From Myxococcota bacterium (GTDB lineage: Bacteria; Myxococcota_A; UBA9160; UBA6930), in contig OZ245015.1 of NCBI GenBank assembly GCA_965223705.1, positions 160,001-224,000 of the forward strand: a stretch of DNA of 64,000 bases. The letters run 5' to 3'. The stretch's first letter is position 1; each line of letters opens with the position of its first letter. The notes under the pieces are model-generated. The model was not told the DNA's origin. It did no database searches and worked only from the letters and a program-made list of their open reading frames with translations. A program made the translations under genes and the position numbers. Shown one piece after another: positions 9,848-10,045 of the stretch.

Positions 9848-10045
9848 CGTGATGAAATGAAGCGGCCGATGAGCACAAGCCACGTGCCCACCGGCCTTCA
9901 TAGGGAGCGGTAGGCCGAAAGCCAAGAGGTCCCTTGCGAGACCGTTAACAAGCTCGGGTCACCGTTCCCGTTGCCGCAGCGAAGCTCGAACGATCGCTTG
10001 GGCCGCCCGGAGGCGAGCCCGTATTTGAGAGCCCGAGTTCGTTGT
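9848..10045 (+). ncRNA. Putative bridge RNA, copy 2 (ends approximate)
   Basis: Hairpin 9857-9901; target module 9903-9969 with TAACAAGC; donor module 9976-10045 with ACGATCGCT and TGAGAGC. Confidence 0.8.

Follow-up and report, generated by a model that had tools for sequence, protein, structure and literature searches.

A predicted bridge RNA gene of an IS621-type IS110 element in a clade apparently specialised on integron attC sites

In IS621, an insertion sequence of the IS110 group, the long left end encodes an RNA that comprises a 5' hairpin, a target loop and a donor loop (Durrant et al. 2024, PMC11208160; Hiraizumi et al. 2024, PMC11208158), and the locus described here likewise has these parts in a long left end. 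IS621 prefers pairing with the core on both strands (PMC11208160); among 30 rows close to the top of the table of core mutants, the core in the left guide reads CT in 25 and AG in none, and this screen suggests that core pairing of the left guide is needed. For the IS1111-attC group (ISKpn4, ISPst6, ISPa21, ISPa25), attC targeting guided by a seekRNA has been published (Siddiquee et al. 2024, PMC11187229). Other papers cited among the known systems are PMC13626964, PMC11616780, PMC9229058 and bioRxiv 2025.10.25.684509.

The window, i.e. the whole stretch of 64,000 nt that was analysed, contains an integron integrase gene on the plus strand (16261-17265; TIGR02249, 449 bits versus a cut-off of 265) with an attI core at 16038-16044 and at least 14 attC sites leftward on the minus strand; 14 attC 3' arms were detected left of the integrase, two of which belong to copies of one cassette. 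Given the positions of the integrase and the attI core, the cassette array reads on the minus strand, which makes the plus strand the bottom strand of attC. An IS110-group insertion sequence of 1175 nt (copy 2; 9834-11008, plus strand) interrupts one of these sites; it is intact and identical to copy 3 (12301-13475, plus strand), which occupies another site. The larger part of the interrupted attC lies at 9712-9833 on the minus strand (R' box 9712-9718, L'' 9822-9829), and the last spacer base together with the R'' box at 11009-11016 on the same strand; GTTAGGC at 11010-11016 is the R'' box, the box names following established integron nomenclature. The CT core at the left junction of copy 2 occupies 9832-9833 on the plus strand, with a second core copy at 11007-11008. 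Copy 1 (5867-7033, plus strand) encodes the same RNA, its recombinase frame being shifted by an 8-nt deletion, and is inserted in a further attC. These three are the only copies in the whole 4.56-Mb assembly, and all of them have the same CT core in the R''-L'' spacer, each in a different attC and cassette. Because their flanks differ on both sides, they represent three separate insertions.

Several features of the array may be added here. One cassette occurs twice, at 7584-8130 and 14434-14980. In a single contig of sequencing run X1, attI is followed directly by the cassette whose end lies at 9718 (window positions 9718 and 16045-16074), an arrangement suggesting that reordering of the array by the integrase still goes on. 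At the far array end, a broken attC-like fragment (1826-1876) lies outside the 14 sites counted. The ORF of the cassette beside copy 3 (13411-13962, minus strand; no family match) crosses R'' and stops inside the right end of the element.

The recombinase (307 aa; 10061-10984, plus strand) carries D8, E52, D94, D97 and S232 in the family motifs. It matches PF01548 and PF02371 and exceeds the cut-off of NF033542, corresponding to a DEDD RuvC-like domain and, at the C terminus, one bearing the catalytic serine. The closest solved structures are ISCro4 (IS622; E 2e-37) and IS621 (E 2e-33), with residues 5-301 aligned, and the protein is 40% identical to an ISEc32 transposase. The left end comprises 227 nt before the start codon and the right end 24 nt after the stop codon; no long sub-terminal inverted repeat of the 7-17 bp type is conserved. 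When the ends are joined as in a circle junction, the -35 hexamer TTGACT (10988-10993, plus strand, inside the 24-nt right end) and the -10 hexamer TATGAT (9836-9841, plus strand) are set apart by a 17-nt spacer in a sigma-70-type promoter arrangement; a promoter scan of the linear element found none. By analogy with IS621 (PMC11208158), the junction is predicted to function as a promoter. The -35 hexamer is missing from several relatives. Just after the -10 box, at 9842-9851, we observed an imperfect inverted copy of the left donor sequence, which exceeds chance in 6 of 20 rows and is not conserved.

Contigs of the runs X1, X3, X4 and X5 include no circle and no empty-site joint, a result that is uninformative either way since contigs drop rare forms; one joint listed there is that of a neighbouring attC matching position 9712. 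At window position 11014, a contig of X4 (the same sample as X1, and possibly the source) carries the right end with a flank that is absent from the assembly and starts with TGTTAG, a possible fourth insertion. Further loose ends in run contigs lie at 10444 and 10871.

Upstream of the recombinase gene, the left end very probably encodes the bridge RNA of an IS621-type IS110 element, judging from its sequence (predicted RNA 9848-10047, plus strand, ends approximate). An earlier note on this DNA had read three modules here by eye and had likened their order and the strand logic of the guides to the IS621 bridge RNA. Every one of its motifs was recovered in place, the modules fold as described, and the likeness to IS621 in order and strand logic was borne out. 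On the plus strand follow each other a 5' hairpin (9857-9901; ATGAAG at 9857-9862 opposite CTTCAT at 9896-9901; z = -3.70), a target-binding loop module (9903-9969; outer stem GGGAGCGGT at 9903-9911 with ACCGTTCCC at 9961-9969, inner stem-loop 9928-9943; z = -2.95) and a donor-binding loop module (9976-10045; stem 9976-9988 with 10034-10045; z = -2.92), and the region 9832-10062 folds with z = -2.76 compared with shuffles. Over 15 sequences, 97.8% of the cells of this scaffold are paired, versus at most 45.6% when it is slid. In the analysis by folding and covariation that the note had proposed, the folds beat shuffles and the 5' hairpin covaries (7 of 36 consensus pairs change on both sides, six of these among the nine pairs of the hairpin); the stems of both binding loops are nearly invariant and by themselves yield scarcely any covariation (1/27 pairs).

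Rfam holds no family for the RNA; one chance match (E 0.65) falls outside of it. In columns 168 and 200 of alignment A1, bases of the left and right donor guides co-change (C-G in 7/15, U-A in 7/15), which may reflect a single inherited event or internal pairing of the empty donor loop. A remnant of a related element at 3231-3330 lacks target and donor loops, the start of its 5' hairpin being followed nearly at once by the start of the recombinase gene.

The donor loop appears to read both sides of the circle junction. Its left guide, ACGATCGCT (9990-9998, plus strand), is identical to the last 9 nt of the element (11000-11008), as had been noticed before; across the relatives the guide has eight conserved positions, which match completely in 21 of 24 rows, and the ninth base matches in only 6/24. 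For the right side, the note had proposed that TGAGAGC (10026-10032) is complementary to the junction. That the donor loop reads the junction can be upheld, but not a contiguous 7-nt pairing, a model that fits none of 22 rows. A model with a 2-nt bulge fits 19 of them: the guide is discontinuous (10023-10031, plus strand), with 10027-10031 and 10023-10024 pairing with CTCTTAT, 10025-10026 looped out and 10032-10033 as handshake bases. Among the relatives, the donor guide tracks three different right ends. An exact 23-nt copy of part of the donor loop is found within the first cassette (15683-15705), 40 nt from an empty attC that matches the guide.

The target loop reads attC, most clearly with its right guide TAACAAG (9946-9952, plus strand), which pairs at 7/7 positions with CTTGTTA and is followed by handshake bases at 9953-9954. 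The word TAACAAGC (9946-9953), previously regarded as the exact complement of the target, does read the R'' side of attC; it is not a contiguous 8-nt guide, though, but a 7-nt guide plus an eighth base in a handshake position. The right guide is paired at 7/7 positions in 16 of 23 rows, and fully paired when wobbles are counted in 22. For the handshake base of the target loop, pairing with the donor base that precedes the core is possible in 21/22 rows, but with the target base in only 12/22. In this element it can pair before as well as after the exchange, since G occupies this position in both target and donor.

The chance of finding such matches was estimated from 20000 dinucleotide shuffles of the left end. 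The 8-mer TAACAAGC occurred in 31 and the 9-mer ACGATCGCT in seven of these, and both together in none. The match of TGAGAGC, with wobbles, was reached in 2129 (10.6%) and is not significant alone. This weak right donor match and the lack of an Rfam family would suit the assumption that the matches have arisen by chance or are left over from terminal repeats, targeting being achieved by the protein alone. We consider this hardly credible in view of the joint chance (0/20000), the correct strand logic in all four guides and the co-change of guides and DNA across the relatives.

What is more puzzling is the left target guide, AAAGCCAAG (9918-9926, plus strand), which the earlier note had overlooked. 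In the register taken from the relatives, only four of its nine positions pair (AGCC), and neither core base does; a shifted register was rejected as worse (1/9 paired). The guide is thus among the weakest in the clade, where L084, L162, L205, L206 and L212 pair all of positions 3-9. Taken together, the 4 + 7 nt guide word picks one empty site in the 4.56-Mb assembly, and the literal target defined by the guides is absent from the genome. Should the left guide be crippled, the RNA would be a relic or serve excision only, and the copies would stem from an earlier or unseen helper RNA or from cassette duplication. The mismatches of the left guide to the core, the frameshift in copy 1, an assembly completeness of 95% and two matching attC sites that are empty can be reconciled with this. 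It nevertheless seems quite improbable: all three copies have the weak left guide, which therefore apparently supported insertion, and their differing flanks speak for separate insertions after the guide had changed. Furthermore, copies 2 and 3 are identical and intact, no second IS110 recombinase was detected in the assembly, and L081 and L082 possess a similarly reduced left guide.

Nor is the combination of a long right guide and a loose left guide special to elements at attC, an idea that we discarded after comparing guides from other sites (174 loci, 142 with a right end found, 52 distinct guides; ends set automatically). The right guide is likewise paired at 7/7 positions in 38 of these 52, and 17 have at most four matches at positions 3-9 of the left guide. 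In L014, L015, L066, L096 and L156, which lie outside the clade, both core pairs are absent as well, again with automated ends.

Searches in genomes, metagenomes and kin genomes yielded 22 related loci with readable RNA and 47-76% protein identity. They form one branch (SH-aLRT 94, 92 and 96; all trees are quick trees). Among the rows listed for a plasmid collection there is no clade member, the best full-length identity there being 47%, and viral contigs with the protein gave one distant match only. The right flank reads CT-N-GTT-R in 19 of the 20 relatives having one, versus 0 of 142 loci outside the clade, and in further loci represented by a right end only, N-GTT-R follows the core in four of five. 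A matching 5' arm is clear in about half of the relatives with long left flanks; hence, their assignment to attC relies in part on the 3' arm.

The guides fit the DNA of their own element better than that of permuted partners. This holds for the left target guide (96 matches to own DNA versus 73.3 after permutation; 19 elements), the right target guide (132 versus 121.9; 20 elements) and the left donor guide (169 versus 144.1; 21 elements). Permutation p-values are at most 0.0002 (0.003 for the right target guide without L181), but related elements are not independent and these values overstate the significance. Right-target counts leave out L163, for which no right end was located, and L084, whose contig stops at the core; left-side counts leave out L087, L163 and L207, and the permutations the near-duplicates L200, L193 and L082. 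The ends of L081 and L208 were set by hand, and a register shift of one was allowed for L001, L164, L167 and L183 in a second test only; L165 (left half) and L176 (right half) were counted as one, presumably split, element. A change from T to G in the target (site CTGGTTA) is met by the guide TAACCAG in L165 (with L176), L182 and L208, i.e. in two subclades, and the guide of L181 likewise matches such a change in its target. L084 and L181, although nested in the clade, have other guides and lie at non-attC sites that fit those guides. The sequences suggest a clade specialised on attC and twice retargeted elsewhere.

The array itself offers a further view of site choice. Of its 14 sites, five read CTTGTTA, seven CTGGTTA and two CTTGTTG; all three occupied sites are among the first five (chance 0.027), which supports the guide. 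The other nine sites mismatch the right guide outside GTT, and none is occupied. Two CTTGTTA sites (5138 and 15633) match the right guide yet are empty. Only three of the seven right-guide bases read the invariant GTT, which has a variable base on either side, the preceding one belonging to the spacer. Since these bases vary and mismatching sites are empty, the integron can escape without touching GTT. The earlier note had described a guide aimed at the GTT core of attC, which the integron cannot easily mutate. Its attC reading is retained, but the second part was overstated, given the nine mismatching sites and the switching guides of the relatives. Selection for escape is at most possible.

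CTTGTTA occurs 31 times in the assembly, and the occupied occurrences are only attC. One explanation would be that the complex of recombinase and RNA favours attC when extruded as a hairpin, or the unpaired spacer of that hairpin, and that this assistance by structure let the left guide decay. In agreement with it, the spacer that separates R and L boxes contains the core, and predicted folds place unpaired bases opposite to it; bubbles helped IS621 synapsis in vitro (PMC11208158); and the bottom strand near this end is likewise the entry site of IS1111-attC elements and group IIC-attC introns (PMC3001079). The left guides themselves tell otherwise: the complement in the duplex beats the hairpin partner in six of eight relatives and is worse in two, and pairing with the hairpin partner, equal in this element, was rejected as no better than pairing with the duplex. 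Moreover, L084 and L181 use the same scaffold at non-attC sites, loose left guides are common outside attC, and the 4 + 7 nt word by itself already specifies a single place in the genome, so that we regard structure-assisted targeting as unlikely. A wider scenario would combine several of these points: an IS621-type lineage became an attC parasite independently, its left guide lost core pairing, and transposition continues with a right guide of 7 nt and a seed of 4 nt, aided by a folded or bubbled spacer, while guide and spacer base (T/G) are engaged in an arms race. We put it forward as a tentative and rather doubtful idea.

Our preferred reading, which we hold with good confidence, is that of a bridge RNA of an IS621-type IS110 recombinase, with a donor loop for the circle junction and a target loop for attC. 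Transferred from IS621, the course of events would be as follows: the element circularises, the circle junction creates a promoter, and the RNA binds the recombinase; the donor loop then holds the circle junction and the target loop opens double-stranded attC DNA. Strand exchange at CT would insert the element between R'' and L'', opposite to the cassettes, and should inactivate the attC that is hit. Specificity would here reside mostly in the right guide with its 7 nt, together with the 4 nt that remain of the left guide. Judged from sequence, there is good support for regarding the locus as the gene for the bridge RNA of an IS621-type element that looks active and comes from a clade specialised on attC.

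The comparison with IS621 reveals many shared traits: the CT core, the junction promoter (here a predicted one), the handshake bases, a short recombinase, left guides that read the bottom strand and right guides that read the top strand, and a bulged right donor guide with a G-T pair in the same place (PMC11208158). The differences concern the target side. IS621 is directed to REP sequences and this element to attC; the natural right target guide of IS621 has 4 nt, here it has 7 nt (although guides longer than 4 nt have been reported and are usual among the relatives compared); the left target guide of IS621 pairs with the core, whereas here four of nine positions pair and none in the core; and the handshake base is here able to pair on both sides of the exchange, as described above. 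On sequence features, the element would belong to the IS621 type in every respect except core pairing of the left guide.

The IS1111-attC group, which reportedly was also the subject of studies by Tetu and Holmes in 2008 and Post and Hall in 2009, likewise has an RNA-guided DEDD recombinase; its insertions lie close to the 5' end of attC and run antisense to the cassettes. Its RNA lies downstream of the gene, in contrast to the upstream RNA and 24-nt right end found here, and it has long sub-terminal repeats, none of which are conserved here. The element seems to work like IS1111-attC elements, but without their two defining features. No named member of that group is among the 60 of 1371 plasmid rows listed, and none is in the trees. 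Group IIC-attC introns (Leon et al. 2010, PMC3001079) share the use of the attC bottom strand, opposite to cassette transcription; these are retroelements with a different chemistry and no bridge RNA.

A pattern search uncovered a second IS110-group lineage at attC-like sites (L250, L267, L272, L288, L289, L310). It shares the left-end RNA, the insertion before TGTTA and, in five of six cases, a right guide ending in TAACAAG; its recombinases are only 36-42% identical and form a separate branch, a common origin with the clade not being rejected (AU p 0.13). In L250, L267 and L289 the left guide, read by eye, covers the 9 nt before the core and not the core. At six further loci (L305, L307, L308, L311, L314, L319), a solitary right end of some 25 nt precedes TGTTA and the vicinity lacks a recombinase gene; these are possibly scars in attC sites.

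Similar RNAs and many unlabelled targets that can be read as attC R'' ends are present in Supplementary Data 1 and 2 of Durrant et al., who, in the parts of their work drawn on here, name attC only in a reference title. Apparent loop-less RNAs with gapped target loops in their supplementary alignment were dismissed, as complete relatives have the loop and the gaps are probably an alignment effect. Our searches of the literature turned up no account of an element of the IS621 type that is directed at attC; an earlier description may exist.

The mechanism is hence a known one and no new principle is involved; less ordinary are a lineage that uses attC and the decayed left target guide of this copy. 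The clade represents a natural series of guide changes from which rules of bridge RNAs could be learned, above all on whether core pairing of the left guide can be made up for by a long right guide. Every insertion is expected to lock one cassette in place within an integron whose shuffling apparently goes on. With it, an IS621-type lineage would join IS1111-attC elements and group IIC-attC introns in converging on the same end of attC.
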